Assembly (NCBI GenBank): GCA_964016885.1
Contig: OZ024743.1
Coordinates: forward strand, 215,388,001-215,452,000
DNA length: 64,000 nucleotides
Direction of reading: 5' to 3'
Origin: Eledone cirrhosa
Lineage: Eukaryota
This document shows positions 22,770 to 63,597 of this stretch, one piece after another. How positions within the stretch are numbered: position 1 is the first letter of the stretch; each line of letters starts with the position of its first letter. The position numbers and the translations under genes were made by a program. The notes beneath the pieces are model-generated. The model saw only the letters and a program-made list of their open reading frames with translations, searched no databases and was not told the DNA's origin.

Positions 22770-22808
<39 letters not shown>

Positions 22809-23643: not shown

Positions 23644-23685
<42 letters not shown>

Positions 23686-23831
23686 CATATATATACACAT
23701 ATATATACATATATATACAAACACATACATACATATACACACATCCACACTTAGAACATACATACACACACATATATAAACATATACACATACACACATA
23801 CATACATATACACACATACATATAAATACAC

Positions 23832-23886
<55 letters not shown>

Positions 23887-24194
23887 CATATATACACATA
23901 TAATCACACATACTATATAGACACACATATATATACACACATACACGCACATATACATACACTTACATACTTATATACATACAGATATACACATACATAC
24001 CTATATATACACACAAATACATACAGACATACATACATACATACAGACAAATACTTACGCATCCATATATCGGTATATACATACAAACACCACTACACTC
24101 TCACACAACTCAGACATACAAAGAAAAAGGTATATACCTATACATATATACATATACAAATAGAGAAACATATACATACATATATATATATATA

Positions 24195-24225
<31 letters not shown>

Positions 24226-24420
24226 ACACATATACACACATACACATACATACACATACATACATGTACACACACATAGATATATATATACATACACACA
24301 TACACACATACATATATAGTCATACACACACATACACCTACACGAACATACACATACACATATATAAAGATATATATACACACACACACACATACACACA
24401 CACACATATATATAAAATAA

Positions 24421-24465
<45 letters not shown>

Positions 24466-24773
24466 CATATACATACACACATACATAGACATACATGTAC
24501 ATACATACTCATACATACATACATACACACACATACATACATATATATATACACACATAGACATATACATACATACACACACAACATACATACACACATA
24601 TATACTCATACATAGAATTAGATATATATTCATACATACATACGCACTTACATATACTCATATATACAAATACATAAGCTCTAGATAGAAGTGGCCACAA
24701 AAATAGATTAGAATATATACCTTCTACTAAAAATACTGAAAGCATACAACCTAATATTACCAACAAACACCAA

Positions 24774-25733: not shown

Positions 25734-27069
25734 ATATTATAAACCTAATTAATAACATTATTTTAGAAATTAATTTAATTTAAATGTTAGTTAACCTATA
25801 AATTTAATTTAATTAAAATTCTATTACAGATGAGAATATAAAATATTATGTAATCATAAATTGTGAAAAACCTTTAAATATTACTAATATATACTTAGTA
25901 ATTTAATTTATAGATTAATTTTAATTTATTTAAACCTTTTATTATAATTCCTTTACAGATAAAATATAACAAAATATCGTGTATCCAATGACAGAGAAAT
26001 AATTTTTAGTATTATAGACCTAATTAATATACATTTTAGAAATATATTTATAATTTGGTTTTAAATTTAGAAAACCTAAAAATTTAATTTAATTGGCTTA
26101 AAATTAGTATCCTTATACAGACGAATTGCAGAATGTCATGTAATCATAGAATGGGATGTGTTTTGGATATATATCTAGTTAATATATTCTTTGCGATTTT
26201 TGAAGAAATATGTATATGTATATATGTATGTGTATGTGTATGTGTGTGTATCTGTGTGTATATATATATATATATGTATATATATGTATATATATATGTG
26301 TATGTATATGTATATGTATGTGTATTAATTTTGATTTCTATTTGCATATAATTATATTCTGCTATTGATAAAATACAATATCTGTTTTATTTATTATATA
26401 CCTAATTAACATATACTATAGAAATAAATATATAATTTTTAATTTAGTTAACCTATAATTTATATTCTACTACCGATGTAATACTTTATTTGTTTTTTCC
26501 CTATTACTAAATTCATTTCCTAATATTGATACCATAACGTTATTAACTTTAATTTAGTTATACTATAATTAATACTCTACTACTATTTAACTTCAAAATT
26601 CTGCTTCAAATATTATAAACCTAACTAATTTACACCTTAGAAATCAATATGTTAACTATCTTTAGTTTAGTTAACATATAATTAATGGTATACTTATTTA
26701 TTTTGAAATGCATAAATTTTGCCTTATTTCTTATTTATTGTATTTCCTAACACTGAAACTATGTAAAAACATACATTGGATCCAGATACGGATAATATTC
26801 TATGTTTCTTGAAACATATATTTACTATAATCCCCTTCTCCACCCCCTCCCCCTTTCCCCCATACTATTATCATCTGTGTTTGTAAGCGTGTATGTATGA
26901 ATATATATGTAGGTAGGTGTATATATGTTTGGGTATTTATATCTGAATATAAAAATACATATATGCGCATGCAAATAAGAATGTAAGATTGTGTGTGTAT
27001 ATATATGTGTGTATGTATATGTATATGTGTATATATGCATGTGTATATATATGTGTATGTGTATGTGTG

Positions 27070-27150
<81 letters not shown>

Positions 27151-27387
27151 ATGTATGTATGTATATATGTGTGTGTATATATATGTATGTCTCTCTATTT
27201 ATATGTCTATCTTCGTATCTATGTGGATATATGTGTGTGTGTGCATGTATACACATATATGTGTTTATGTGTATATGTGTGTATGTGTATATATGTGTGT
27301 GTGCACACACATATATATGTGAGTGTGTGTATATGTATGTGTATATATATATATATATATCTGTGTGTGTATATATGTCTATATTCG

Positions 27388-27436
<49 letters not shown>

Positions 27437-27647
27437 TATCATTATAATATAACTTATGTGTATGTGTGTATATGTGAGGGTGTGTATATGTATATATATG
27501 TGTGTATATATATGTGTAAAAAAATATATATGTGCATGTCTGTTTTTTATGTGTGTGTATATATATATATGTGTATATATATGTATATGTGGGTGTTTGT
27601 ATGTGTATTTATGGTTGTATGTGTGTATGGGTATATATATATAAGTG

Positions 27648-27684
<37 letters not shown>

Positions 27685-28013
27685 ATATATATCTCTATTA
27701 ATGCGTGTATATATGTATATGTATATGCCTTTTTCTTTGTATGTCTGAGTTGGGTGAGGGTGTAGTGGTGTTTCTATGTATATACGCATATATGGATGCG
27801 TATGTATTTGTATATATGAGTATATGTAAGTGCGTATGTATGTATGAATATATATCTAATTCTATGTATGAGTATATATGTGTGTATGTATGTTGTGTGT
27901 GTATGTATGTATATGTCTATGTGTGTATATATATATATGTATGTATGTGTGTGTATGTATGTATGTATGTGTATGTATGTACATGTATGTCTATGTATGT
28001 GTGTATGTATATG

Positions 28014-28054
<41 letters not shown>

Positions 28055-28250
28055 TTATTTTATATATATGTGTGTGTGTGTATGTGTGTGTGTGTGTGTA
28101 TATATATCTTTATATATGTGTATGTGTATGTTCGTGTAGGTGTATGTGTGTGTATGACTATATATGTATGTGTGTATGTGTGTATGTATATATATATCTA
28201 TGTGTGTGTACATGTATGTATGTGTATGTATGTGTATGTGTGTATATGTG

Positions 28251-28289
<39 letters not shown>

Positions 28290-28602
28290 ATATATATATA
28301 TATATGTATGTATATGTTTCTCTATTTGTATATGTATATATGTATAGGTATATACCTTTTTCTTTGTATGTCTGAGTTGTGTGAGAGTGTAGTGGTGTTT
28401 GTATGTATATACCGATATATGGATGCGTAAGTATTTGTCTGTATGTATGTATGCATGTCTGTATGTATTTGTGTGTATATATAGGTATGTATGTGTATAT
28501 CTGTATGTATATAAGTATGTAAGTGTATGTATATGTGCGTGTATGTGTGTATATATATGTGTGTCTATATAGTATGTGTGATTATATGTGTATATATGTG
28601 TG

Positions 28603-28653
<51 letters not shown>

Positions 28654-28799
28654 GTGTATTTATATGTATGTGTGTATATGTATGTATGTGTGTATGTGTA
28701 TATGTTTATATATGTGTGTGTATGTATGTTCTAAGTGTGGATGTGTGTATATGTATGTATGTGTTTGTATATATATGTATATATATGTGTATATATATG

Positions 28800-28851
<52 letters not shown>

Positions 28852-29480
28852 CTTGATATATTTCTTTTTTCTTTTTTCTTTTTCTTTTCTTTCCTTTTTA
28901 ATGTTTATTTATTATTTATTATTTTTTATTTTCTTAGTTTATAGATACATCTATATTAAGCAGTCTGCCCAAACCGTTGAATACTGACCTCTCCCCCCCT
29001 CCCACCTAATTTCTGTATCTTGATCTAAATGTGTGTGCCAGTGTTTATGTGAGTGAATTAATATCCATGTGCTTAGGATTTTATATCCACATATATATAT
29101 GTGAGTGGGGGTGTATGTGTGTTTGTATGTTCGTAGTTATGTGTATGTTTATGCATATACGCGCGTGTGTGTGTGATTGTACGGATATGTGTGAGTATGA
29201 GAATATGTGTATACACTTATTTCATATTTATGTGTCTATACGCATCTTATCTGTGCATTATAAACTTACAGAGACATTAACCTTGAAATTTTGTATTTGC
29301 ATCCATCCTTTTGGTATGCGTATACAAGTTGAGCATACATTTTTGTAAAATATGTGTAAGGGTAGTTACATGTATATACACACACCGAACTGCATTAAAC
29401 CTTTTGTATTTTCATTGGTCAATTTTGTTCCCAAACGGACCTGAAATTTTGAATTGTTGTTATTATCAATAAATATATTT

Positions 29481-29630
29481 CATTATTTCTGAAGACGGCG
29501 TATATATGTGTTGGTATGTATATTTAATCTTGATAGTTTGTATAATTTTGTATAATTTTGTACATAGATCTATTGAATATGCATGCCAATTCTAACACAT
29601 ATATATCCTAGAAACGATCGTTAAATAGTG
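29481..29630 (+). ncRNA. type I HHR with very long stem II (mirror copy 22865-23014, -)
   Basis: cattattt-CTGAAGA-[115 nt hairpin]-GAAAC-gatc-GTT-aaatagtg. Confidence 0.75.
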
Positions 29631-29829
29631 AACTTCTTTTGTTTAATATAAGGAACTGTTTCATTGTTTTATTCATTATTTGTTTAATATTTTATCTTGA
29701 CTCTGTATACCGTTTATCTTTCACCGAAAGTGATTTTTCATTACATCTCTTCTTTCCATGATATCCGGAATACATTGAGTTCTTCATACGGATTGGACAC
29801 TACCGTAAACTCTTGGTAGATTTATCTAC

Positions 29830-31180: not shown

Positions 31181-31788
31181 CATTAAAATATATGATAAAC
31201 ACAAAACGTGTTTGCATTGCAACAGTCAGTCAGCTAGTAATGAAATAAACTAATTAAAGTGAATACAATTTGTCTGTCTCGATATAAGTCAATAAAGACA
31301 AGCTTATATTGGCAACTGCCATGATTGCTGGACAGATTTAAATTTCAAAATCCAAACCTGTTCTGTAGACGAATTTGAACCTCGAATGGATTCCTGTTGA
31401 TATGCACAGAAGATTTGGATATTTCACTTTTTATTTCAATTCCATTTCGATTCTCTTTATTTTTTAAATTCACATACCACCATTGCGAAACGGATTTAGG
31501 TTTCGAGGTTCAAATTCGTCTACAGAACAGGTTTGGATTTTGAAATTTAAATCTGTCCAGGAATCATGGCAGTTGCCAATATAAGCTTGTCTTTATTGAC
31601 TTATATCGAGACAGACAAATTGTATTCACTCTAATTAGTTTATTTCATTAATAGCTGACTGTCTGTTGCAATGCAAACACGTTTTGTGTTTATCATATAT
31701 TTTAATGTATTTAACGGCTCGGAAATGCCTCTTTCCTGGAGCTTAATTATAGTAAAGGACTGAGAGCTTATTCTCAAAATATTATATA

Positions 31789-32120: not shown

Positions 32121-34336
32121 TCATCATATTAAATCATGGTCACATGCTTTGTTGGAGGAAATAAATCATAATGAATGGCGTTTGAAAAAACCTTGGCCTC
32201 ATCATTACGTTTCATTACGTAATCAAAGAAACACCAAACACTTGAGATGGTGAAAGTGCCCTTCCCTCTAACCCAGAGGTAATTTAGAATAGCCTGAGTT
32301 TAATAAAGAACTAAGGCTATTTGAATATGCTAATGTCGACGATTTTCCTCACGATTTTATATTGCTTCTCATACTCGTGTGATTACCAATAAAAAGGTGA
32401 GTAGATAATGCATTGCTCTATGCATGCCCAAATTACAACAAGCTTATCATTAGCCACAATAATATTTATGAATTGACGTCTAATATATATCGATGTAAGT
32501 CATGATATATCTGCATGCATTATCTCATCTAATTCATCAATTACATACTCCATCAATTGCTTACGCTTCCACCATCTCATTATTACATGTAAATTAATCT
32601 GTGTATATTGAAAACATCTAGCTATACACTTATGTTTATGAAAAAAACAATTACAACTTGTACTTCGAAATCTAAAGATCACCTCTCATTCTCACTTAAA
32701 TTCCACAACCATCATTTACTGTGTACACTGGGTGGATACATTTTCCTTCCTCAGTCTTTCACACATGAAAAATTAATCATCTTGCATTTCGGATTCCATT
32801 CCCTCGCACTTTCCAATATACTATTTTGTTATATCAGCACATGGCCCTCAAAACATGAAGTTTCTGCAAGCTAAGCCTGAACCCGTCCCTATATCATAAT
32901 AGCAGTGAATTGCACACACATCTACACGATATTCTAATTAATAATTCCCTCACACACACAAACACACACGCACACATACACACACACAAACACACACACA
33001 CAAACACACACACACATACACACATACACATATACACACACACACACACTCACACACACAAAAAAACACACACATACATACAAACACAAGCATCTAAAAA
33101 AACACAATGAAAGCCTTGCGTTGTTCTCTATTTATCTGCATATTTAAGAAGATTAGTAGGACTAGAGACTAGAATCAACAGAAACTATACTTTCTTTACT
33201 CTAATGTACTACATAAGAACCTAGCTACGGCGTACTATAATTAAGAAATACAGGCCGTTGTTCATGAGATCGATTTTGAGGACTTGCAGGATATTTGTTA
33301 TGTGGTCCATAGGTGTCTTCAAACCCCTAGAGCAACATTGCAATTCATATTGTAAGGCTTCGGAAGAATTCTCAATAATTTCAATTTTAGCTACGTATAT
33401 TTTCCCTGGCTGGTATTTATTTACACAAGGCTATAGTTATTTTATGTCTCGTGTTGCTCTATTTTATAATTAATCGTGTGCCTACATAGCTTGAAATTAT
33501 GCATTAAGTATGATACGTATGAATCATGGATATGTCCAACATCTAAATACACTGCGCTTATGATGCTACAGGCTTATCTGACGTAGATGCGAATAGACTT
33601 AGCTATCCCATATCAATTCGATCAAAAACATGAAGCGCTGGAAAGTCATATTTTCTTTTGATATTCTTCACAATAATTTTCGTGAAGTAAACCTAGACAA
33701 TATAATATAAAACATGATATAAACATGCACACACACACACACAATCACATTACACACCACGCGCGCGCAGACAAACACGTTCGTATACATATTACCAAAC
33801 AAACATACACCCAGAAATTTATATACAGAATTATATACTACATATATATATATATATATATATTGGTAAACGGAATAGAAAATGCTGACAAATTGTTCAC
33901 AGTTGAAAAATGGTTTAATTAGGAATAAAAGAGTATTAGTGATTGTATGGGTTAGTATTCAGTTGTGGTTTTAAGTTTTTAAGTTTATACCGGTTGCGCA
34001 TTTCTAAATGCTTTTCAAAAATAATTTTGAGATAGAGTGTCCGTGCTGTTTGCTCGGATCTGATTAGTTTTGGGAATTCTACCTGTTTTTATGTTAAAAG
34101 TGGCTCCAGCGTTATTTTTGTGTTGCAAAAATGCTTGTGGTCAAAACAATTTTGATTGGTCGGTAGAGGTCATGTGAATGTAAAAAGTTGATTTTGCGCC
34201 AAGACTGTTTTTATGTTAAAAAAGTGGCTCCAGCAAAAATTATTGGTCAAAACAATTTTGATTGGTCGGTAGAGGTCATGTGGATAAAAAATTGATTTTG
34301 CGCCAAGATTGAGAAATGACTCTTTCACAACAAATA

Positions 34337-34395
<59 letters not shown>

Positions 34396-34487
34396 AGTAG
34401 TAGTAGTAATAATAATAATAATAATAATAAGGTGTTCGATGCTGCGACAATGGCCAGCAGCGATGTGTGTCAAATGGCTATTAAGAT

Positions 34488-34523
<36 letters not shown>

Positions 34524-34831
34524 CAGAGTCATTCGAAGGTCAAAAGATATTTTTCAGCTTTTGTCTTATACGGAGAAGTGCGTGTGTGTGTGTGTATAAG
34601 TCTCTTTGTATGTTGATGTACGCGTGTGTATGTGTTTGTGTATATATGTGTGTGCGTGTGTGTGTGTGTGTGTGTGTGGGTGGACCAGTATTTTTTTCCC
34701 CCTGGTAAAATGGTGTACATTATTTGATTTTTTCAGTGAAATCGGTTCTCTTAATAGAACATCAAAAATCTTAACAATAAAAGGTGTGAAATGATATTCA
34801 CTATATATATATATACACACACATACATATT

Positions 34832-34886
<55 letters not shown>

Positions 34887-35028
34887 TACATACATATATA
34901 TGCACATATATTTTTTTGTATTGCACCATAGAGCATGTGTGTTTACGTGTGTCATTGTGTTTATATGTGGGTAGAGATGTGTGCTGATGTAGGTATGTAT
35001 GTTGACGTGTGTATGTTGTGGGTTCGTG

Positions 35029-36660
35029 TTAGGGAGAAGTGTTTAGACGGGGTCCGTATTTGTTAATGAAGTAAGATTCCTTGCTGATGCGCTGGGTGTA
35101 GGTGGCATTATCTTTAAATTTGTAGAGGCGAAAGATTCTGAAGTTGGGATAATTTTGGGCGGCACAGGTATCAATGTGTTCACTCAGTGGTATTTTCCTG
35201 TATTCCCGTATTTTAATTTGGGATCTATGGACAGTCATGCGTTGGCGGAGGCTGTTTTTGGTCTGGCCTATGTATTGTTCTCGACAACCTGAACAAGTTA
35301 ATACATATATTAGATTTTCCGATGCACATGTGAAATTGTGTTTTACTATAAAACGTTGTCCATCTTTGAAATAGAATTCCGAAACCTCTATTAGGTTGAT
35401 GCAAATGCCACAGTTGGGTCTATCGCATTTTTCTACTGTGGGTTTCGTTGTTGAGGTTGGCCGTACTTTGGCATGTGTTAAGATGTTTTTCATTGACTTG
35501 GATTGTCTTTTGCTCTTTATGATATCGTGTGTTCGTAGAATATGGTTCATTCTATGGTCCTTTTTCAATACAGGGATGTTCTGGAGGATGGTGTCAAAGG
35601 CCTCATTGTTGAGGGGGTTGTGTGTGGAGATGTATGGAAGAGCTTTTAGTTTTGGTTGATTTACTTTAGGGTGTCTAAGGTCCTGGGTACTGAGTTTTAG
35701 GGCACGTTGGATTCCATTGTCAATTAGTGATGCAGGGTAGTCCCTGCCTATGAGTGTGTCCTTTAGTTCTTGTAGCCGTAAGTAGCAGATGTTTTTATTG
35801 GAGACTATAGTACAGATTCTCTTGGCTAAGTTGTAGGGAATATTAATTTTAACGTGTCTAGGGTGGCAAGAGTTGAAGGGGAGATATTGCTTGGAGTCTG
35901 TGGGCTTGTAGTATATGTCTGTTTCTATTTTTTTGTTATGGATCTTAATGAGGATGTCGAGGAAGGGGAGTTGTTGATGGCTGTATTCCATCGTGAAGTT
36001 AATATTTGTGTTGAGCCCATTTATAAGGGTGTGAAATTCTTTAAGTTTTTCGATGTTTTCGTGCCAAAGGATGAAGCAGTCATCTAGATATCGCTTCCAG
36101 TTCCTTTCAATGTGTAAGTTGAGGGTGTTTCCAAATTTGTTTAGGACTTTATTGTAGAGGGTGATTTCCAGTTATCCCATGACTAGGTTGGCATAAGTAG
36201 GGGCTGTTTTCGTTCCCATAGCGGTCCCAGATTTCTGCCTGTAGGGTTTGTTATTGAAAACGAAGTAATTGTTCTCCAAGATAAATTTGAGTCCCTCTAT
36301 CACGAATTCTTTTTTGATGCGTTGTGGGAGTTCATTGTGGAAATTATCCAGCCAGAATTGGATAGCTTCTATTCCTAGGTTGTGGGGGATGTTGGAGTAT
36401 AGGTTGACTACATCGAACGTCACTAGTAGGGTTTGTTCAGAAAGTGGCATATTAGGGAGGTGATTGAGCATATCTTGGTCGTCCCTTATATAGCTTTTGA
36501 TGTGCTTGAGGAAGGGTTTGAGAAGGGTATCAATGAAGTTGCTAAGACGGTGCGTTTCGCAAGCGGGGCCTGCTATTATAGGTCTTAATTTGAGATCATT
36601 GGGTGAGGGGACATTGATGACTATGTCTGTGGCTTCCTTGCATGCCTTACTGATTGATTC
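35029..36660 (-). pseudogene. Neptune RT-GIY-YIG ORF with one in-frame TAA at 36172-36174
   Basis: FDVVNLY, GTAMGTKTAPTYANLVMG*, WKRYLDDC, CxxxxCxxC linker, LIYVLTCSGCREQYIGQT. Both ORF pieces are in the same frame. Confidence 0.9.
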
Positions 36661-36843
36661 GCTTTAACAAATACGGACCCCGTCTAAACACTTCTCCCTA
36701 AGACGAACCCACAACATACACACGTCAACATACATACCTACATCAGCACACATCTCTACCCACATATAAACACAATGACACACGTAAACACACATGCTCT
36801 ATGGTGCAATACAAAAAAATATATGTGCATATATATGTATGTA

Positions 36844-36884
<41 letters not shown>

Positions 36885-37034
36885 AATATGTATGTGTGTA
36901 TATATATATATAGTGAATATCATTTCACACCTTTTATTGTTAAGATTGTTGATGTTCTATTAAGAGAACCGATTTTACTGAAAACATCAAATAATGTACA
37001 CCATTTTACCAGGGGGAAAAAAATACTGGTCCAT

Positions 37035-37077
<43 letters not shown>

Positions 37078-37331
37078 AACACATACACACGCGTACATCA
37101 ACATACAAAGAGACTTATACACACACACACACGCACTTCTCCGTATAAGACAAAAGCTGAAAAATATCTTTTGACCTTCGAATGACTCTGCTATATACAC
37201 ACACACACACACACATACACACACACACTTATCTTAATAGCCATTTCACACATCGCTGCTGGCCATTGTCGCAGCATCGAACACATTATTATTATTATTA
37301 TTACTACTACTACTACATACACACACACACA

Positions 37332-37405
<74 letters not shown>

Positions 37406-37436
37406 CATATTTGTTGTGAAAGAGTCATTTCTCAAT

Positions 37437-37660
37437 CTTGGCGCAAAATCAATTTTTTATCCACATGACCTCTACCGACCAATCAAAATTGTTTTGACCA
37501 ATAATTTTTGCTGGAGCCACTTTTTTAACATAAAAACAGTCTTGGCGCAAAATCAACTTTTTACATTCACATGACCTCTACCGACCAATCAAAATTGTTT
37601 TGACCACAAGCATTTTTGCAACACAAAAATAACGCTGGAGCCACTTTTAACATAAAAACA
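37437..37660 (+). promoter_or_regulatory. 2 x 104-bp tandem module with GGCGCAAAA, CACATGAC, CCAAT and GAGCCACTTT motifs in the Neptune pLTR
   Basis: Motifs seen directly, in the same order as 62635-63220. Function is inferred. Confidence 0.4.
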
Positions 37661-37722
37661 GGTAGAATTCCCAAAACTAATCAGATCAGAGCAAACAGCA
37701 CGGACACACTATCTCAAAATTA

Positions 37723-37759
37723 TTTTTGAAAAGCATTTAGAAATGCGCAACCGGTAAAA
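37723..37759 (+). ncRNA. degenerate U3-A8 HHR-like motif (mirror near 33987-34022)
   Basis: ttt-TTGAAAA-gcat ttagaa atgc-GCAAC-c-GGT-aaaa. Confidence 0.4.
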
Positions 37760-37916
37760 ACTTAAAAACTTAAAACCACAACTGAATACTAACCCATACA
37801 ATCACTAATACTCTTTTATTCCTAATTAAACCATTTTTCAACTGTGAACGATTTGTCAGCATTTTCTATTCCGTTTACCAATATATAATAACTTGTGTGT
37901 TACACCTCTATTCTTT

Positions 37917-41239: not shown

Positions 41240-43677
41240 AAAGTTTTATTTAAGATTGTTGGGTTACAACGAGTAAATATTTTATAACTGATATAAAAGC
41301 ACTCAACAGTTTCTGGAGTAGGTTTACGATATTAAACAAATGGAAACTATATTTATAAAACCATATTTATTTCGTTATATATATTTCTGGGATATCATAT
41401 TAAAAATATGTTATGCCTTCCTCAGACAAAATACAATACATAAGCTGTTTTATAAATAATTAGTGACATAACTTGTAATAATGCAATTTCCTTTTAAAAA
41501 GTTGATTTGGTAGTGAAACTGTTATGATAGTTATATAGAAAGAAAACGAAGATGAGAAGAAGAAGATGAAGAGATGTATGTAAATAAAAAAGAAGAAGAT
41601 GAAGAGATGTATGTAAAGAGAAAACAGATGTATGTAAAGAAAAACAACGGAGCGAGATAGAGAGACAAGGATAGAGAGAAATACATTGATGGTGAAAAAA
41701 AAAACATAGTAGGCTGCTTTTTGACAGATGATCATCGTATATGTGAGAAGTTAAGGGAGGGATACAGTTAGATTAGTGTATAGGAGAAAAAGAAAGAAAG
41801 ATGATATATTTAAAATATATTAAAAATGTCTCATCCATTTGAATTATCAATTTTTATGAATTAGGCATTATAATGTAAATATCAGTATTCATGAATGAGA
41901 CACATATCTATAATGTGTAAAAAAAAAAAGACCACATGCTCAGTTTAAAAATTCTTAGGTCTATAAGCAAAATCTGAGACAAAACTTCAAAACATAAGTA
42001 TATATGCATTCTCGTGAAAAATAAGAAAAGAGAAGGTTATCTCAAATTCAAGTTGATAAATATAGACGCACATGTGAACCTAGGTGATACGCTGCACTGA
42101 TTCTTATATTTCATGAAAAACTTCAATGTGTCAGAAAAGAAAAACTTCAATGCGTTAGAAAAGATTCCACCCTACATACATTTACATACATATATACATA
42201 TATATAGACACAAAACATATAAGATATACATTAACATCCAAATCTAAAAATTCATCCAATCTAAAAATTCCCTTAATTTACGAACCAATTTATTCAGCTG
42301 TTGCAGACATAGATTGAACTCAACATTTAAATATAAATATAAATTTAAAATGTAGTATAAAATGTCGTATATTTACTTAAGGTATTTGACTATTTGTGAT
42401 ACTTGGCGATAAATCTTTCGATTCCTTCAATTTTTTTTAAAACCTTTCAATTTTTTTTATAAAACCTTTCCGCATGAATATATAATTAATGAGATTAAAT
42501 AAACTACCCTAAAATTGGCGTTGTTCCCAATCTTTTGAATACATTTTTAAGCTGGTAAAACTTCTATAATAAATATAAGAGCATTTGTAGAATAAGTTTT
42601 GAATGATTTCTGATAGATAAGGCTTGGTGAGCAATGTTGGTCTTGTTTCCTTTTGACTCTGATTCTATGACCGATATGCGTGGCATACTATGTTCTCTTG
42701 CGTCCCTAGATACTCTGTGGAGTGACGAAGATATTCTTGGCGTTTTTAATTTTAATATTGATATCTGTTGTCTACTCTATGCTTGATCGATGATTATTTT
42801 GGATGTTAATGTATATCTTATATGTTTTGTGTCTATATATATGTATATATGTATGTAAATGTATGTAGGGTGGAATCTTCTCTAACGCATTGAAGTTTTT
42901 CTTTTCTGACACATTGAAGTTTTTCATGAAATATAAGAATCAGTGCAGCGTATCACCTAGGTTCACATGTGCGTCTATATTTATCAACTTGAATTTGAGA
43001 TAACCTTCTCTTTTCTCATTTTTCACGAGAATGCATATATACTTATGTTTGAAGTTTTGTCTCAGATTTTGCTTATAGACCTAAGAATTTTTAAACTGAG
43101 CATGTGGTCATTTTTTTACACATTATAGATATGTGTCACATTCATGAATACTGATATTTACATTATAATGCCTAATTCATAAAAATTGATAATTCAAATG
43201 GATGAGACATTTTTAATATATTTTAAATATATCATCTTTCTTTCTTTTTCTCCTATACACTAATCTAACTGTATCCCTTCCCTTAACCTCTCACATATAC
43301 GATGATCATCTGTCAAAAAGCAGCCTACTATGTTTTTTTTTTCACCATCAATGTATTTCTCTCTATCCTTGTCTCTCTATCTCGCTCCGTTGTTTTTCTT
43401 TACATACATCTCTTTTCTCTTTACATACATCTCTTCATCTTCTTCTTCTCATCTTCGTTTTCTTTCTATATAACTATCATAACAGTTTCACTACCAAATC
43501 AACTTTTTAAAAGGAAGTTGCATTATTACAAGGTATGTCACTAATTATTTATAAAACAGCTTATGTATTGTATTTTGTCTGAGGAAGGCATAACATATTT
43601 TTAATATGATATCCCAGAAATATATATAACGAAATAAATATGGTTTTATAAATATAGTTTCCATTTGTTTAATATCG

Positions 43678-43766: not shown

Positions 43767-44766
43767 GGTATATATTGAGTTAGGAACTCAAAATAGTCTT
43801 TTACAACACAAGAGCTCTAAGAAAGAGATATTTCTGAGCCGTATATTATAATAGAATATAAAAGAAAAACGAACACAGATATATAGATATATGTGTTCAA
43901 ATCGTAAGGGACCTGATTCGCTAAGGTGAAAAGAATACTAACTATAGACAATTGGGTTCGGTTGTCTCAATTTAAGAAAAAATTAAGAAAATAAATACAA
44001 ACCGGAATTGTGGTAACTACCAATAACCCAGACAACTTGTTGTTGTTGAACAAAGTTAATTGTGAATAGAAATACCAGTCCAAGCTCATCAGTGTGTGAT
44101 GAATTACCACAATTCCGGTTTGTATTTATTTTCTTAATTTTTTCTTAAATTCAGACAAGCGAAGCCAATAATCTATAGTTAGTATTCTTTTCACCTTAGC
44201 GAATCAGGTCCCTTATGATTTGAACACATATATCTATATATCTATGTTCGTTTTTCTTTTATATTCTATTATAATATAGGGCTCATAAATATCTCCTTCT
44301 TAGAGCTATTTTGTTGTAAGAGACTATTTTGAATTCCTAACTCAATATATACCTTTAATATATTAGGCTCCGTTAATTTGTTGAGCTATTTCAAATGTCG
44401 AGTAAACCTTGCTGCTATTTTTAGTGGTGTGGGTTTGTGAGACTCATAAGGATGTCATGTGCGGTGTTTTATATTTTATATATGGCATACATAGATGTCA
44501 CTAGGATACTAATTCATCAACCACTGATGAGCTTCGATTGGTATTTCTATCCACAATTAACTTTGCGAAACAACACGTTGTCTGGGTGATTGGTAGTTAC
44601 CACAATTCCGGTTTGTATTTATTTTCTTAATTTTTTCTTAACTTGAGACAAGCTAACCCAATTGTCTATAGTTAGTATTATTTTCACCTTAGCGAATCAG
44701 GTCCCTTACGATTTGAACACGTATATGTATATATCTGTGTTCGTTTTTCTCTTATATTCTATTATA

Positions 44767-46851: not shown

Positions 46852-46928
<77 letters not shown>

Positions 46929-46932
<4 letters not shown>

Positions 46933-47957
46933 GGACGTAAAATAAGAAAATTATAAAATTAACTTACTTACTAAAATTCCACTCCCAACTAGAATGGAAT
47001 AAATATACTTTCCGAAGAAAATATGGAGAAGCATTTCGTCGTCAGGGAAGTCTATTCTCAGCTAAGTATCCAGGCAAAGCGTGGACTCTGGAAACTTATA
47101 CAAAAATAATTCAGTGCATAGAAAATAGCAAAGCGTGGACTGAATTCCTAGCCATTGAGAAAATCACTGCCTACTGCGTCGGTGGCAAATTCAAAAGGAA
47201 TCAATCACGTGACATCGAGGTCAATCAGTGGAAAGTGGTTTGTTAAGAAGACAGCGGCCTGCCTGCTACCATAGCAGCAGTCTTGGCCAATATTGCTCGA
47301 CAAATAATTTGGAGATAATTATAAAGAATTAATATCTAGTAACATATATACACATACAGATGCATATCAATACTAGCAAATATATAGGTTTTGTCTTAGT
47401 AACTTTGTGGTTCAATGCATGGGGTTCCAGAACAATAATATGAGAGACGTAAAATAAGAAAATTATAAAATTAACTTACTTACTAAAATTTCACTCCCAA
47501 CTAATTAGTTTCTGAAATGGAATAAATATACTTTCCGAAGAAAACATAGAGAAGCATTTCGTCGTCAGGGAAGTCTATTCTCAGCTAAGTATCCAGGCAA
47601 AGCGTGGACTCTGGAAACTTATACAAAAATAATTCAGTGGATAGAAAATATTAAAGCGTGGACTGGATTCCTAGCCATTGAGAAAATCACTGCCTACTGC
47701 GTCGGTGGCAAATTCAAAAAGAATCAATCACGTGACATCGAGGTCAATCAGTGGAAAGTGGTTTTAGTAAGTAAGTTAGTAAGTAAGTTAGTAAGTAAGT
47801 TAATTTTATAATTTTCTTATTTTACGTCTCTCATATTATTGTTCTGCAACCCCATGCATTGAACCACAAAGTTACTAAGACAAAACCTATATATTTGCTA
47901 GCATTGATATGCATCTTTATGTATATATATATATGTTACTAGATATTAATTATTTAT
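46929..47957. mobile_element. family E non-coding HHR element: ~1.6 tandem monomers (-, period 523 nt) + inverted tail (47762-47957 +)
   Basis: gtcagggaag at 47041 and 47564. TA flanks. Confidence 0.87.
47493..47574 (-). ncRNA. type I hammerhead ribozyme (copy near 46981-47051 has lost GAAAC)
   Basis: cttcc-CTGACGA-c gaaatg…catttc a-GAAAC-taatta-GTT-gggag. Confidence 0.8.
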
Positions 47958-48125
47958 ATATATATATACATGAAATCTAATTGTACAAAAGTATCTCACA
48001 CGTAAACAAATATACAGTGCCCAAAATCATCTTGAACGTACATAAATCAACAGATTGTCTATGTTTATGTTTACATCTATATAAATCATATACTTTTTTC
48101 TAATTTCCATCTTTATCTTCTTCAG

Positions 48126-48180
48126 GGTTTGAACTGACAAACATTAACTGCCTTAAATCTGTTATATCATATTTCGATGA
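48126..48180 (+). CDS. candidate 55-nt host exon
   Basis: ctaat branch + pyrimidine tract + cag acceptor; ga|gtaaga donor; open frame FELTNINCLKSVISYFD. Confidence 0.3.
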
Positions 48181-48379
48181 GTAAGAGCAAATAAATGATT
48201 ATATACAGAAGCAGAATCCTTTCACACATTAGTGTTTTTATACATGATATATGTATATGATTAGTTTGACATGTACGTTCAAACAGACATACAAAGTTGT
48301 ACAGAAATCAAAATCGAAAATCATAATGTGTAAAGTATCCATCAAAAATATGCATATTTCATTAATTCCTAGACCGATG

Positions 48380-48415
<36 letters not shown>

Positions 48416-48512
48416 CATTTTTGCGTGTGTGTGTGTCTGTGTGATCGTGTACATCTGAGTGTTTGCCTCTATACACAAACAAATAACCACAAGCACACAC
48501 ATAGATTCGCAC

Positions 48513-48548
<36 letters not shown>

Positions 48549-48746
48549 CTATATATATATAGAGAGAGAGAGACAGAGAGAAGTGAGGTTATTTTCCATT
48601 CAAAATAGTTAGAAACAAAATTTAATACGATGACTGCTATCCAAGAAACATATCTGGAAATACATATATCAATACATGCAATCAAGAAGTTTGAATATAT
48701 GTATATTGACCGAACGCTAAACAACAAGTGTATATATATATATATA

Positions 48747-48797
<51 letters not shown>

Positions 48798-50164
48798 GCG
48801 CGTGTGTGTGTGTGTGCTTTCTTATTCATCTAAAATTACTGATTTATATCCCCGCTAAAGAAATCATTGATATTCTCATATTTCTAACCAATATTCCACT
48901 GATATGTTTTTCTACATTTTATATCGGTTTGGCACAACTAATTTATATAAATTTAACATGTGTAATTTATTCTCATGAGTTTTGAAATATATTCATGTAT
49001 ACTTCGGTCATACATTTACGGAGATCTATGAAAGATGTTAACCTTCATGAAATATTTTATTTTCTACCGAAACTTCCATTCAACGCTCCGCTGTGGCAGG
49101 GTGCTCTTTTTCAGCCATTCAATTGTTACCTGACTAAGATTTTATGTTTGAAAGTAAGCTAATTCTCGTCGGCAATGCAATCAACTGTGCTATAGTAGGC
49201 TCAAAAACGTGCTTTACAAATCACATGTTGGTTACATGCGCACTTGTTTAATAGAAAATATTGTCATTTATTCGAAATAGAGCCGAAGAAATTATGCTAA
49301 ATTTGGAACATTTTTACCATAAATGGCTGGAATATTAATAAAATGCTTTGAATATATGACTAGCCCTGCTTATTTATCTTGCATATTCATTTGATTGAAA
49401 TGAACAATCTATAAAGAACTATTTCAAAACAGATTCGGAAATATAATACATAAGTAATTATCATGTTTAATATTCGGGATCTATTCTATGCGAAATTCAA
49501 GGGCGTGTTTGATATTCATAATGTCTGCCGTTCTAAAATGTATCAGTAATAAATATTAGTGCATTTTTCATGTCACAACAACATTCAGACATGGTACAAG
49601 CCGCAATATTATAGAGTTATTTTGTTGTATTTACGTTTATGTTTATCCCCATGATACATATTTCAATGACGTCACGAAGAAAACATTCAAGTTGTAGTCA
49701 TCGGCGAAATATCTATCATGGAGTTAACAATTAACCTAAACACAACTGCATAATAGCTACGATTTATTTAATATTGTTTGAGGAAATATATTTTTCGGAT
49801 ATTCTTTCTTTTATTTACTCTCATTTATCCCCCCCCCCCCACACTTTCAAACCTTTATAAAGCTTTTCCTAATATATCAAGAGTTAAATTAATTTATATC
49901 AACATTGTATTCGATTGTTCTTCCTTATTGAATTGTCTCGTATATGTAAAATAGATATATCTATATATGTTTATGGGTGTGTTATTATGTTATGTCAAAT
50001 GTATATATATATATAATATATGTAGTAAGAAACACAGTAAATCGTGTGTCTAATAATATGAGGGTTGAAGAACCACATTTGTTTGAAATATTTAACCATG
50101 ATGCAGACAGAATGATAAAATAAAATAAAATTATATTATACAAACCACCTCAATAACAAGTATA

Positions 50165-50246
50165 TCTCTCGGACAGATTAGGGATTAATCTGTTTCGCCC
50201 TGAGTGTGTTTGTAACAGATAATCCACGGGCATCATCAGCGAGAGA
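50165..50246 (-). ncRNA. full type I hammerhead ribozyme
   Basis: tctctcg-CTGATGA-t gccc…gggc-GAAA-cagatta atccc taatctg-TC-cgagaga. Confidence 0.9.
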
Positions 50247-50638
50247 ATCTGATTAAATGCGACAAACACCTAGTACCAACGTTCACACAGAAAAATGAAT
50301 TCATCACCTCGTGTGCCGTAAGTCAAAAGTGGTGTGAGTGTATTGGTTAGAAATAACAGTCCAACACACGCAACTTAATAAGCGCACCTCTTGAGGGGGC
50401 CGAAATATAAATGAAAGTTAGAGTTAATAACTCATACTGAAACCCTGTAATCAACAAGCCTCAAAGTATAAATACTGAGCATTATAATAATATATGTAGT
50501 AAGAAACACAGTAAATCGTGTGTCTAATATTACGCGGGTTGAAAAGCCACATTTGTTTGAAATATTTAACCATGAAGCAGACAGAATGATAAAATAAAAT
50601 AAAATTATATTATACAAACCGCCTCAATAACAATTATA

Positions 50639-50720
50639 TCTCTCGGACAGATTAGGGATTAATCTGTTTCGCCCTGAGTGTGTTTGTAACAGATAATCCA
50701 CGAGCATCATCAGCGAGAGA
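50639..50720 (-). ncRNA. full type I hammerhead ribozyme (second tandem copy)
   Basis: As 50165-50246, with one C-to-T change in stem II giving a G-U pair. Confidence 0.9.
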
Positions 50721-50846
50721 ATCTGATTAATATTAGACACACGATTTACTGTGTTTCTTACTACTTATATTATTATAATGCTCAGTATTTATACTTTGAG
50801 ATTGTTGATTACAGGGTTTCAGTATGAGTTATTAACTCTAACTTTC

Positions 50847-50880
<34 letters not shown>

Positions 50881-50899
50881 AGTAATAGAATACTATGAT

Positions 50900-52310
50900 A
50901 TCAATCTTTCCAGATAAATTCGTAATGGACAAATATCTGGAAGGTTTTATTAATAACATGCGTTTTTGTTTTACGAAATTAATGAAGGAAGACAAAATCA
51001 AATACGATGTATGTAAACAAGAATGGAATTGTTAACAATTAAGAAACATTGTTGTTATATAATCGTATTATTATTGCAAGATATCTTTGCTTTCAAAATG
51101 TTTAGAGCATTTGAGATAGATAAACTAGCGCAAGTATTATATAGATTAAAGCTATGATACACCGGACACAAAAATCGGGTTGTCTACCTGTTGCGAAAGA
51201 CTGTGCGTACCCAGCAAACTTCCCAGTATAAAAAAAAACAACTAGAAATTATCAGGATGAGAGGTTGAGCACGGATATCGTTCCGTTTCATCAAAACAGT
51301 TGAGTTTGTTTGAAATCAATGTGTCTTTTAAAAGTAGAATAGAAGGAGCATGGGTGATCAAGACCGAACAATACGCCAGTTTGTCTAACATCATCAGGGA
51401 AGCCTACGTCCACGTCAATGTTCTCGCTAGAAAGATTGGAACCAGAGAAGGTGCAGGCAAATTAGCGTACAATCTCAAGAAACAACTTTCCGTCTCTGAG
51501 AAAACCAGGACCAAAGCCCTAAAGGTAATCTTACAGGTTGCATAGAGGAGCTAGATCTAGTCGGGGATAAACGGAAACGACATCCATATGGTTTGGGGAG
51601 TTTTGTTTGTACTTTAGTGGACTCTATGGGATACAAACCTGATTGAGTCATGGTTGTATTATTTGAGGCAGTATATTAAGCGTTGGACTAAAACCAGAGA
51701 CTAGATGATTTCTAATTGCAGTACAATTTCGAAGCTTCTGTACCAGAAATCACAAAAAATATATAATGAAACAGAACACTGTACAAACTGCAGAATATAT
51801 GCAGGTGGGGAAGAAACAATTAGCTATATTGTCTTTGTCTTCCCAGTCATATCAAATAAAAAAATTATTGCTTGACATTATAGAGTTAGGGTTTATATAC
51901 GCAGGATATTACGCCAGCATTACGAAACACCAACAGTAAAAAGACAGTAAAGTCGTACAGCCATAAAGATGTTCAGAGAATGACAAAGCAACCATATCTC
52001 AATACGCACAAACATTGAGATCCAAGAGACAAACGACAAAATATTATATGGAAAGATCAAACAAAATATCTTCCAATTGACATCAACTCTTCAGATGGTA
52101 TTCATCTATGGAGTAAATGGAGAGATGTTTACAATATAAAGATCTAGAGACAGAAATGACCCTCAAATGTGGATGATAAATACAGAAATAATCACTATAA
52201 TAATAGGGGCTTTGGAAATAATGAGGAAACAGACAGATACATAACCAAACTCCTAATACTTTTAATACATACAAAACAGAGGAATGCACAACGATTACTC
52301 TTAATTTAAT
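50900..52310 (+). mobile_element. highly degenerate R4/Dong-like LINE (restriction-like endonuclease) remnant; 5' boundary uncertain
   Basis: Broken frames give CR..GEETISYIV (CCHC-like) and YKDLETEM..MW..TEIITIIIGALE. Confidence 0.55.
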
Positions 52311-58457: not shown

Positions 58458-58534
58458 GTAGGACACTTCGGTTATTTTTCATTTTGTAAAAAAACCTCAC
58501 TTTCTAATACATACTCACCACACGAGGACCGAAA

Positions 58535-61500
58535 ATGCCACCAAAGTCTCAACATAACAACAACTCACTGAACCAGGACATCTTAAATGAACTCAAAGAG
58601 ATTTCCTCAAAACGCTCAATTTTGACCAACAAAGTGGACCAAATACACATCTATAAAAAAGGACCCCACGAAGAAACAGAAAATACCTAAGAGACAAATA
58701 TTACTCCAGCATTAACTAAACTAATCGAAACCATTGAAACAGCAATGCTCCAAAAGCTGGAACAGCCATTAGAACCCAGTCTACGAGATGTCCTCTCAGT
58801 GAAAAGCACCCTAATCAATATATGGACTCAAAATCACACAGCCCGCAAATTCGCCTTTTGGAATCTCCTAAAAAATAATGGCAAGACAGACATATATGAA
58901 AAGTGGATAAAATCTACCCCAATCATCCTCCCCAAAAAACTCCAGATAAAACCCATCTCGTATGATCCACAAAACCAACAAAGACTTAGGGAAAAGATGG
59001 CGTTAGAAACATTTAAAATAGAAATAGAACTGTTACGAAGAAAACTCCAACGAAGAAAAATTCAAGTCACTCGACCAACAGATGGTAACAGATATTTCAA
59101 GGCACTCTGAAAGCCTACTCTATGGAAAAACCTTAAAACTTAAAACTTTGGAAAGAAAACTGTGAGGATGAAGAACTAACATCCCTCCAGCGATGGTAAA
59201 AAAGCGCCACCTGGTTCAACAACTACGAAATGGATTTCAAAAATGAACAACATACAGATAACCCATTTTTAAAACAAACTAAAACTCACACACCTAATGC
59301 ACAACAAATAACAAAAAAAGTAACAAAACATGCACAACAAATAACAAAAACAAGTAACAAAACGTCCAACATACCCCCAGCAAAACTATAACGATAATCC
59401 CAGAACCCATAGACAAAACTATAACCCTACTAACAAAAACCGAAGATCCTCCAACACAAGTCAGGACTCGATCCGCAGATCACAACCCACGCAAAACCTA
59501 TTCCAAAATCGTAGACCCCTGCCCACACAGAGCCTATTCCAAAATCGTAGATCCCAACCCACACAAAGGAACAAATTCTACAACCCGGAATATCAATAAA
59601 CCGAGCCTTAATACCTCCGAAACTTCTATACAAGACCACACAACAACAAGGGAAATGCCCTTAGATATAATAATACCATTGAAAAAACATTCCAGAAAAA
59701 TCATTTTTAGACCAAGGCTACAGGACCCACGAAACCCGGTGGCACAAACCGATTTTGAAAAACCAAAAATAATCAACCTTTCAAATACAAACCTCTCAGC
59801 ACAACAAGTAAAAATTCTATCCAAAGGACTGAAATTCACACCAACACCACAATACTTTAACCTCAATGAGATAAATGACGATATCTCACACTTCTGTAGA
59901 AAATTACGTCTCACAGAGGAATTCTTTGATAAGGAGAATAACGACCAATAAATTGTACGGAATAAAAACAGCTACAACCCAACAAAAGGTACAAACAGAG
60001 TTCTGGACACATTTTCTGACCACATAGCCACTTTCCCATACAATGAACTACCGCAACCTAAACCCAAACCCAACACGAGTCGAAAGGAATGGGAGATTAT
60101 CCATGAACTAAAAAAACAATACGGACATTATAACTAAGGAAGAGGACAAGGGAAGTACTGTTGTCATTATGGATGCTGAAAAATATAAAATGCTATGCTC
60201 TCTCTCTTACAAAATACTAATTACTATGCAAGAGTAAACAACTACCAGCAATCAAAAACAATGATCAGATTAAACACGCTGATTTGTCGATACCAGGAAG
60301 ACTTAACTAAAAAGGAACGCGATTATTTAACACATTTTGAATACAAAACCAGCAACCTTTACGGACTTCCGAAGATCCACAAGTGTAAAATAATTAACGA
60401 TGCCTGTAAACAATCTGTCTCAACCTGCGTGAACACACAATACCCCACATACCTTAAATTAAGACCAATTGTAGCAGGCCCACAATGTGAAACACACAGA
60501 CTGAGCAACTTTATAGACATACTACTAAAACCAATTCTCAAACACATACCAAGCATTGTAAGAGATGATCTGGACCTCTTAAACCACCTCCCCAAACATG
60601 TCAACAACGATACTATTATTGTGTCTTTCGATGTAGTGAATCTCTACACAACGATCCCACACCAATACGGACTACACATAATAGGATTCTGGCTAGAGAA
60701 ATATCCCAATGAGATATCTGACAGAATAGAAAAAAAAGCTTCACTTCCGAGGGATTAAAATTTATCTTACAGAACAACTTTTTTTATTTCGATGGCAGTA
60801 CTTACAAGCAAATATCTGAGACTGCGATGGGTACAAAAGCCGCTCCGACTTATGCCAACTTAGTCATGGCATACTTAGAAGTCCAGATTTATGAACAGTC
60901 CAAATCAAAATACGGATTGAAATTCCACAAATATTTATCAGAGAATTGGAAACGCTACTTGGATGATTGTCTCATTCTTTGGCCCCACACATTCGACCAA
61001 CTGAATGCTTTCACAAATTAAATAAACGGCATCAATTACCACATCCAATTTACAATGGAATACAGCCATTTCTGGAAATCTTAATCTTAAAAAAAGACAC
61101 AAATATTGAAACTGGCATACACTACACACCAACAGATTCCAAACAATACATGCTATTCACCTCCAACCATCCAAAGCACACGAAGACGAACATTCCTTTT
61201 AACCTAGCAAGAAGAATTTGCACAATTGTCTCCAATTATGAAACGCGAAATAAAAGACTTCAAGAATTAAAGGAAATTCTCTCGAAAGACAGTACCCACC
61301 ATTACTAATAAATAATGGAATAGAAAGTAATAGGCATTGATGAATTACGAAAACAGAAACAAATTCAATGTACGTCCAATATTCTATCATATATCTCAAT
61401 ACACAGCCCAAGAAATGCGGAAGCTTACAACACTATTCACAAGAACATCCCACTACTGAGACAAGATCCAAGAATGAAAAATAGCCTTTGAAACACACAA

Positions 61501-61990
61501 AATAATCAAAAGCAAAAGACAACCGAAATCACTGAAAACATTACACACCAATGCCAAATTACCTGCGACAAACCCACAACCAACTGTCAAACAATGTGGT
61601 TGCTCTAATTGTGTAACCTTCACTTACCTCATTGAAGGCAACACGTATACATTTGAATCAGGAAAATATTTTGCTGGAAAAATTCACTTCACTTGCTCAT
61701 CAAAAAATCTATGTTATGCCATTGAATGTAAAGGATGCAATGAAGATTATATAGGACAAACTAAACTCACACTCAGAAATAGAATGACAGTTCATCGCCA
61801 ACAAATACGAGATCCAACCACGAGACAGATACCACTAAGCGCACATCTAGACATTTGCGCAAGTAATAAGACACCCACATTCCAAGTCTTCCCAATTTAC
61901 CTTTGCGCTGACAATACAACAGAACAAATACGAATAAATAAGGAATATATGTTTATTCAAAAATATAGACCAGCATTAAATATGGTTTAA
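58535..61990 (+). pseudogene. Neptune RT-GIY-YIG ORF with multiple frameshifts and stops
   Basis: IINLS…LSKGLKFTPTP, YGLPKIHK, LRPIVAG, SFDVVNLY, MGTKAAPTYAN, RYLDDC, YIGQT. Confidence 0.9.
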
Positions 61991-62634
61991 TATACATTAT
62001 GTCAACACCAGAACATTCTAACCATCCAAACAGACACACCCACACATAACACCTTCTATTTTAGAAAATAAAAACCCGAACTAAATGAACCTTAACATAC
62101 GTTTGCGCTGACAATACAACAGAACAAATACGAATAAGTAAGGACAATATGTTCATTCAAAAATATTCCTAATGACGGAATCATTTTCCTAAACACACAC
62201 ACACACACACACACAAAATATATATTCTCTTCATCTGAACATGCTAACCATACTCCCACACACACATAACACCCCACACACAAACAACTCCCTCCCCCAT
62301 TTCTGCTAATAGAATCATTTTCCTACACACACACACACAATATATATATATTCTCTCCATCTTAACATACTCCCACACACACACACATAACACCCATATA
62401 CACAGACGCACAACTCCCTCCCCCATTTCTACCAATAGAATCATCTTCCTATACACGCATACACACACACACACACACATACAATTAAACATACATATGT
62501 CTACTTCCTTTATTTCAATAGAAAATCGGAACTCTGACACCCCAGCGAACTAGCCATATTCACTGAACCAGAACAATTCTCCCATCCCATTTCTCTTGAC
62601 CATTAACTTTTGCTTGTCATAATATTCTCTAAAT

Positions 62635-63220
62635 GGCTACAAAAGTAATTCCCAAATACGGGCGCGGAACTTGTTCACGTGACAGTCATGATTTCATTTA
62701 TAACCAATCAAATTGCATTTTTAAAAAAAAAGCCTTCGGGAGCCACTTTTTTATTGTCATAAAATTCTGTAAAAGGCTACAAAATAAATTCCCAAATACG
62801 GGCGCGAAATTTTAATGAACTTTTTCACGTGACTGTGGTAATTTCATTTATAACCAATCACATTACATTTTAAAAAAAAAGCCTTCGTGAGCCACTTTTT
62901 TTATTTTTATAAAATTCTGTAAAAGGCTACAAAATAAATTCTCAAATACGGACACGAAATTTTAATGAACTTGTTCACGCGACAGCCATAATTTCATTTA
63001 TAACCAATAAAATTACATTTAAATAAAAAAAAAGCCTTCGTGAGCCCCTTTTTATAAGTAAAAAGTAATTCAAATTCTCATATACGAAAAAACAACATGA
63101 GCCCCCCCCCCCCCCCCTTGTTTGAAGAACTTTGTAACACGAACTGGCGCGAAATTTATTATACTTATTGAACAACCAATTAAATTACTTCTGTAAAAAC
63201 CTGGCGTTTCGAGCCACTTT
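62635..63220 (+). repeat. 3-4 x ~145-bp tandem repeat with GGCGCGAAA, CACGTGAC, CCAAT and GAGCCACTTT motifs
   Basis: ggctacaaaa at 62635, 62776 and 62925. Confidence 0.8.
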
Positions 63221-63293
63221 TATCCATATTAAACAAGTAACATTCAAAGACCAACCAGATGTGAGAAAAACCACAGACCCTCCATCTCAACGC

Positions 63294-63332
63294 TACTTTT
63301 GAAAAGCAGAAAAACTGCGAAACCGTTAAAGG
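63294..63332 (+). ncRNA. minimal HHR variant with U3-A8 core (UUGAAAA)
   Basis: ctt-TTGAAAA-gcag aaaaa ctgc-GAAAC-c-GTT-aaag, followed by AATAAA. Confidence 0.7.
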
Positions 63333-63597
63333 AACCAAATAAACATATATATTTTTTTAAAAATAAGACTCCAGTTGCATTGTCGATTTCATCTTTTTTT
63401 CCTTATACTTTCGCTCGTGTCGGACACCTCGGTTATTCTTCATTTTGTAAAAAAACCTCACTTTCTAATATATATATATCTATCTATATATATAATATAT
63501 ATTATACATCTATCTATATATATATATATATAATATATATTATATATCTATCTACCTATATATATATAATATATATTATATATCTATCTATCTATAA

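Follow-up and report, generated by a model that had tools for sequence, protein, structure and literature searches.

Family E, a repeat with a period of 523 nt that carries a predicted hammerhead ribozyme, is probably a protein-less, non-autonomous derivative of Penelope-like elements (PLEs) of the non-LTR retrozyme type, copied in trans. It was characterized in a 64,000-nt stretch of the Eledone cirrhosa genome, termed the window, which is AT-rich and laden with microsatellites (139 TRF rows). Among at least 120 homologues of a LINE RT in the window, the highest identity listed belongs to an Argonauta hians protein (64% over 79% of the query), and the composition is like that of octopus genomes, both pointing weakly to an octopod. 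Read along the minus strand, the main locus is ordered as a (TA)n tract, an inverted tail, a slippage filler, copy E1, the join at 47319/47318, copy E2 and a further (TA)n tract at 46929, with the following features.

47788 to 47958, plus strand: inverted 5'-truncated copy, 3' tail only, with the long end and then (TA)n.
47765 to 47787, no strand: slippage filler (repeated 12-mer) at the head-to-head junction.
47320 to 47764, minus strand: E1, a 5'-truncated unit whose hammerhead is intact and whose 3' end is the full (long) one, from self-comparison.
47705 to 47739, minus strand: conserved block with TCACGTGA at 47728-47735, a candidate promoter element about 150 nt upstream of the hammerhead.
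47492 to 47575, minus strand: type I hammerhead motif of E1, a ribozyme predicted by descriptor and fold comparison.
47445 to 47482, minus strand: AT-rich conserved block directly 3' of the cut site, a candidate RT-recognition element.
46929 to 47318, minus strand: E2, head-to-tail after E1, with a destroyed core; its 3' end is of the short type, corresponds to 47441 and lies in (TA)n.
47241 to 47318, minus strand: linker of 78 nt that joins the tail to the next body, closes the 523-nt unit and recurs in other runs.

The period is defined by self-comparison of the window, in which 47438-47764 matches 46926-47241 at 93.6%, and the 836 nt of 46929-47764 (minus strand) correspond to 1.6 units with the tail-to-head join at 47319/47318, in agreement with the earlier note, which had described about 1.6 copies of a 523-nt monomer joined near 47318. 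The inverted tail reported there is also present, with the 171 nt of 47788-47958 matching 47320-47486 at 94.7% and lying head-to-head with the 1.6-mer across a junction bridged by 3.2 copies of the 12-mer (47764-47802). That description of the monomer had the repeat unit right, missed the dead second hammerhead in E2 and did not name the PLE and retrozyme context. An 11-nt deletion in E2 takes out GAAA and half of the palindrome, leaving a single intact hammerhead at 46929-47764. The GC content of the unit is 35% and its self-pairing is not unusual (z -1.32, with 9 of 100 shuffles folding equally well). A 3' end next to (TA)n, some 180 nt beyond the predicted cut, is common to the inverted copy, a third copy termed E3 and one contig of run X6; the long 3' end is present in the inverted copy and E3 and the short one in E2, making the extension one-sided. 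Within the block at 47445-47482, E1 and E3 are identical over runs of 24 and 14 bases. GTAAGT, which resembles a splice donor, is located at 47476-47485 (minus strand) in the conserved block of E1, E2, E3 and the inverted copy, some 15-25 nt beyond the predicted cut on its 3' side; no clear splice acceptor to match it was seen.

The E1 hammerhead begins with stem I (47574-47569 paired with 47498-47493), which leads into CUGACGA at 47568-47562 and an extra C. Stem II (47560-47555 paired with 47519-47514) carries an internal loop and a 9-bp apical hairpin with UUCG, and is followed by an extra A, GAA and the palindromic stem III at 47509-47500, placing the predicted cut after the U at 47499. The intact hammerhead recurs in E3.

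18304 to 18753, plus strand: E3, a diverged subfamily with the long 3' end and an intact hammerhead motif at 18513-18580.

E3 is followed by (TA)n at 18754-18819, is oriented opposite to E1 and is identical to it at 323 of 431 aligned bases (75%). Both copies have a stem I of 5-6 bp, CUGAYGA, one extra base, a 6-bp stem II starting with G-C, one extra A, GAA, the 10-nt palindrome and U17. The type I features (CUGANGA, GAAA, NUH and three helices, open at helix I) are found in E1 and E3 and not in E2. A type I descriptor, written after the motif was seen, gives six matches in the window, including E1 (47568-47499) and E3 (18513-18580), compared with one in 30 block-wise dinucleotide shuffles. 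The Rfam search returned no match in the window at the gathering score; for 46900-51000 it gave 37 matches at E<=10, none of them a hammerhead.

E3 keeps the core, the stem II base and the palindrome ACTAATTAGT, and pair 5 of stem II is exchanged between U-A and G-C (gaaagg/cctttc versus gaaatg/catttc), a true compensatory swap as claimed earlier for the diverged copy. Stem I has a compensatory 1-bp indel, in which the extra U.G pair of the 47-kb copy is absent from both strands in E3. The loop divergence that had also been proposed is confirmed for the sequence and not for the structure, an apical hairpin being kept in both copies (9 bp with UUCG in E1, 6 bp in E3). The upstream conservation noted earlier likewise holds, with GATGTCACGTGATTGATTC (19 nt) and TTTTGAATTTGCCAC (15 nt) identical in E1 and E3. 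One 19-nt identical run between two copies arises in 20% of simulations; the conservation is clumped, and its four identical runs of at least 17 nt were seen in 0.08%. E3 ends short of most of the 47241-47318 linker segment.

Computed energies of the 10-nt palindrome are -9.0 kcal/mol as a duplex versus +1.5 as an isolated hairpin, and the double hammerhead is calculated at -34.2 versus -25.0 kcal/mol for two active monomers in E1 and at -38.9 versus -29.8 kcal/mol in E3. A short palindromic stem III is the published signature of dimer action in PLE hammerheads (PMC4209133, PMC6765202), which matches the significance that the earlier note gave to it, and from this fit together with the energies the hammerhead is predicted to cut as a dimer. 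Action as a monomer is also allowed in the energy model, in which the junction context makes a stem III of 3 bp slightly favourable. In neither copy does the active fold have the lowest energy, even for the dimer (-34.2 versus -37.8 for E1 and -38.9 versus -43.4 for E3), so that the best alternative fold beats the double hammerhead by 3.6-4.5 kcal/mol, and the hammerhead regions fold no better than shuffles (z 0.25 and -1.46).

The PLE hammerhead consensus is CUGANGAH-G..C-GAAAN-palindrome-NUH (PMC4209133), and family E shares with the pseudo-LTR (pLTR) hammerheads of that report the extra base after A9, G10.1-C11.1, the palindromic helix III, the extra N11 and the short helix I; 10-nt palindromes are listed there also for Aedes and Saccoglossus. 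The extra A before GAAA was considered as a novel core variant and dropped, since this 2014 descriptor permits an extra N11. In a noticeable difference, loop II of family E comprises 35 nt in E1 and 32 nt in E3, formed by the internal loop and apical hairpin, compared with 3-10 nt in the PMC4209133 descriptor, which would therefore miss the E hammerhead. A further difference with those pLTR hammerheads is that no ORF was found attached to E.

The 523-nt unit is present, whole or partial, in 10 of 14 listed sequencing runs, none of which is on record as RNA. Four runs were examined and contain 2427, 77, 14 and 30 matching contigs, indicating that family E is an abundant repeat; run X1 possibly has the same source as the window. 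The join at 47319 is bridged by record 17 of run X5 with more than 31 letters on either side and is crossed by records 9, 10 and 11 of run X4 with 10, 26 and 17 letters on the short side, the bridging rule holding for one of the 32 contig pieces listed. The tail-to-head join recurs under two other organism labels, in one case in a run with just 14 contigs. The joint between linker and body was found in X1 and X4, and with the join crossed in X4 and X5 this indicates that the unit closes on itself beyond this locus. Contigs cover 47241-47294 less deeply than the body, and X4 has another continuation at 47302, so that a longer parent element may exist. The tail is deeper than the rest of the unit in X1 and X6 and not clearly so in X4, and a depth step at 47439 is present in X1 and absent in X4 and X6; these differences carry no weight in the favoured reading. 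Scans with unit patterns gave 0 matches in metagenome contigs and 0 in viral contigs; a scan of bacterial genomes gave one 18-mer match, attributed to chance, in a genome without a hammerhead.

Among the 40 substitution rows listed (of 94), 13 fall in the hammerhead region 47492-47575, with six keeping or restoring pairs, three at unpaired or free positions (including N7) and four pair-breaking or ambiguous. The pair-keeping rows comprise a stem I change from U.G to U-A, both partners of stem II pair 5 (each variable in X1, X4 and X5), the 3' partner of stem II pair 2, for which the matching 5' partner occurs in an X1 loose-end consensus, and two wobble to Watson-Crick changes in the apical hairpin. 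Stem III, the CACGTG block and the invariant core are free of changes in the 40 rows listed, and pair 2 of stem II would be disrupted by one X1 loose end, seen in 2 contigs. E3-type letters are present also in X1, X4 and X6. The partner changes are linked in a single molecule for E3 only. Selection on the fold, as the earlier note had proposed, is upheld qualitatively by the two window copies and the contig stem variants, tempered by the four pair-breaking or ambiguous rows.

E1 and E3 both read L-I-x-L-D-V-T-stop across CACGTG, and this peptide was considered as the remaining 3' end of an endonuclease ORF in decay, a reading that was rejected. The three phmmer matches include no PLE (two are tandem-repeat proteins and the third has weak unrelated Pfam matches only), there is no third-position bias (4/16 versus 3/15 and 2/15), and the score on a PLE C-terminal profile is -2.2 bits, a value equalled or exceeded by 405 of 438 scored shuffles and compared with 35.7 and 37.1 for positive controls. 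Searches with an antisense 100-aa ORF gave 52 candidates and 0 homologs. Six-frame comparison of the unit with 114 PLE proteins of one clade gave a best tblastn E of 0.047, and an HMM search with the PLE panel gave no score above 0 bits, with queries that are short, decayed and of low power. The alternative that the earlier note had set against its own reading, in which the monomer is no more than the end of a coding element, has become less probable; no coding relic was found in these searches. TCACGTGA occurs five times compared with 0.55 expected, from just two independent families, namely E and a tandem repeat with CCAATCA nearby in the 3' region of another PLE. The CACGTG region is taken here to be an E-box. 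By analogy with PLE pLTRs, which typically contain promoters (PMC6765202), an E-box promoter inside family E is plausible.

Hammerhead-bearing PLE ends and non-LTR retrozymes are both known (PMC4209133, PMC7229834), and the non-LTR retrozymes of metazoans have been defined and derived from pLTRs (PMC7229834; bioRxiv 10.64898/2026.07.22.740005). Family E shares with them an apparently non-coding tandem unit, one type I hammerhead per monomer, a low GC content (35%, with a criterion of <45%), a high copy number and a genome that also has PLEs, and the ribozyme predicted here is of the dimer type as in axolotl retrozymes. The recurrence of a head-to-tail monomer with one type I hammerhead is found, on thin support. 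The unit of 523 nt is above the 170-400 nt range given in PMC7229834 and inside the 51-972 bp of bioRxiv 10.64898/2026.07.22.740005. E differs from these retrozymes in its arrangement, a 1.6-mer plus inverted stub within (TA)n instead of a long array, and does not appear to be strongly self-paired. An active copy as described in the 2026 preprint has two consecutive complete hammerheads; with the E2 core deleted the E locus has one, which is a property of the locus and not of the family.

The layout of the locus is closely related to that of PLE insertions, for which partial tandems, an adjoining inverted truncated copy, an extension confined to one end and a bias towards (TA)n are described (PMC8557442), and all four traits of the EN+ PLE units (Neptune, Naiad and Poseidon) are present in E. 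A 3' end past the hammerhead is also common to E and these units (PMC8557442, PMC11167929). E differs in having no RT/EN inside and in an extension of about 120 nt compared with 30-40 bp, and no autonomous PLE (RT and GIY-YIG ORF in sense between pLTRs) is attached to it in the window. The same layout is repeated in the window by the hammerhead family at 50.0-50.85 kb and the ORF-bearing PLE at 33.9-37.9 kb. Reverse transcription in PLEs starts internally, downstream of the hammerhead, and insertion by PAc in vitro proceeds without hammerhead cleavage (PMC11167929); for retrozymes, eight of nine Xenopus dimers failed to cleave in vitro (bioRxiv 10.64898/2026.07.22.740005).

Family E could instead be the pLTR (3' end) of an autonomous PLE absent from the window, with the copies representing 5'-truncated dead-on-arrival insertions and the 523-nt period a partial tandem or minor deleted form. 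This is the closest competitor, and we consider it somewhat unlikely. It would account for a ribozyme of PLE type in a layout like that of ORF-bearing PLEs (PMC8557442; window 33.9-37.9 kb), for the lower depth at 47241-47294 with the other X4 continuation at 47302, and for the stop of E3 before most of the linker. It sits poorly with the tail-to-head join recurring under two other organism labels and with the lack of any ORF similarity in the six-frame panel searches; the share of matching X1 contigs running into unlike sequence is 0, which is a weak sign because the contigs are short. A protein-less derivative copied in trans is favoured over the pLTR end on account of the PLE insertion layout, the internal start of RT and the published pLTR-derived retrozymes.

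A satellite-like repeat spread as DNA, in which the hammerhead would be a leftover from an ancestor and no longer selected, would fit the dead hammerhead of the second tandem copy, an active fold that is not the MFE and the contig variants that break pairs. The dispersed copies, the recurring 3' end in (TA)n and the inverted stubs point rather to retrotransposition, and the core is kept with compensatory changes in subfamilies 25% apart, making a satellite origin very unlikely. Conservation as a ribozyme or promoter cassette domesticated for a host function is the least credible reading: the four E1-E3 identical runs of at least 17 nt (0.08% of simulations) are set against thousands of variant contigs, insertions in microsatellites amid other mobile elements and a core decayed in one of three window copies.

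For the protein-less derivative copied in trans, the transcription, cleavage, circles and helper that we infer would take the following course. Tandem copies would be transcribed, perhaps from the upstream E-box region, and two hammerheads would pair via the 10-nt palindrome, so cutting out a monomer that may circularise. A PLE RT/GIY-YIG protein acting in trans would nick (TA)n, with reverse transcription beginning inside the RNA at the tail; reading through more than one unit of a multimer or circle would give the 1.6-mer and a second priming event the inverted stub. The E2 hammerhead would have decayed after insertion, and with it decayed this copy could not build its own double hammerhead. 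In 20 comparisons of E with the ends of the autonomous PLEs and other repeats of the window, one TA-rich match was above its shuffles, and no convincing similarity to the PLE ends emerged.

Other hammerhead families are present in the window. A second family at 50008-50849 has a period of 474, an inverted tail and (TA)n flanks, with the same one-sided asymmetry of its ends as E; unlike the E locus it contains two intact type I motifs on the minus strand (50713-50646 and 50239-50172), and its stem III of 8 bp is non-palindromic (monomer-type). A third family is located at 12880-13100 (minus strand) and 18820-19110, with a palindromic stem III ATGCGCAT at 13050-12996; in its copy near 19030 the core is lost and the inverted tail shares the (TA)n tract with E3. 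At 22637-22675 (plus strand), with a partial copy at 696-814, there is a compact motif resembling a type I hammerhead, in which stem II is short and stem III longer.

Besides a weak RT match at 36.2 kb, the window has GIY-YIG matches at 17.2, 35.0 and 61.5 kb. PLE ORFs of another type, located at 1620-6569 and 22803-29692 in partial tandem and between 760-bp inverted repeats, resemble Naiad in their motifs; Pfam gave nothing for them at E<=0.1. Inverted-repeat units beside (TA)n at 31181-31707, 41327-43677 and 43851-44762, in which no hammerhead was found, are probably further PLE-type insertions. The PLE protein at 35 kb has 115 longer relatives, most with RT and GIY-YIG-type domains, and appears Neptune-like from the Cys-rich linker before the endonuclease, a trait given in PMC8557442. 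Neptune-like PLEs are located at 33864-37880 (with a 1.2-kb inverted 3' copy) and at 58460-63470 (near full length, with a 50-nt terminal repeat), and their 3' tandem repeats contain CACGTG or CACATGAC near CCAATCA. Descriptor scans found no hammerhead in the Neptune-like PLEs of the window. A truncated member of the 35-kb family adjoins E3.

17226 to 18298, minus strand: 5'-truncated RT/GIY-YIG PLE, 93% identical to the 35.0-36.7 kb PLE.

This PLE and E3 lie head-to-head with at most 7 bases between them, and the remainder of the PLE is absent from the far side of E3. The PLE is antisense to E3 and the 3' region of its family differs; E3 bears the long end typical of inverted partners, and in the 35-kb copy of the same PLE family the inverted partner is its own 3' end. 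The junction at 18.3 kb may tentatively be viewed as a chimeric insertion of Neptune-like PLE cDNA and family E cDNA made in one integration event, with E3 replacing the inverted self-copy, a proposal that we hold to be unlikely; as a single case it could alternatively derive from two neighbouring events with a deletion.

The link between PLEs and retrozymes has been argued for vertebrates in a 2026 preprint, which by its own account does not treat other animals in depth (bioRxiv 10.64898/2026.07.22.740005). No description of an octopus hammerhead ribozyme, a cephalopod retrozyme or a PLE-retrozyme chimeric insertion was evident in the literature searched. Family E likely extends the non-LTR retrozyme class to an octopod genome and, since it keeps the full PLE insertion signatures, forms a convenient test case for retrozyme movement. 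Something new could come from one lead only, the head-to-head junction at 18.3 kb. If the chimera is real, it would identify the helper of a retrozyme directly from a trace in the genome, the two arms of inverted PLE insertions would derive from two separate RNAs, and a hammerhead retrozyme would be able to travel with a PLE that shares no clear sequence with it and in which no hammerhead was found.
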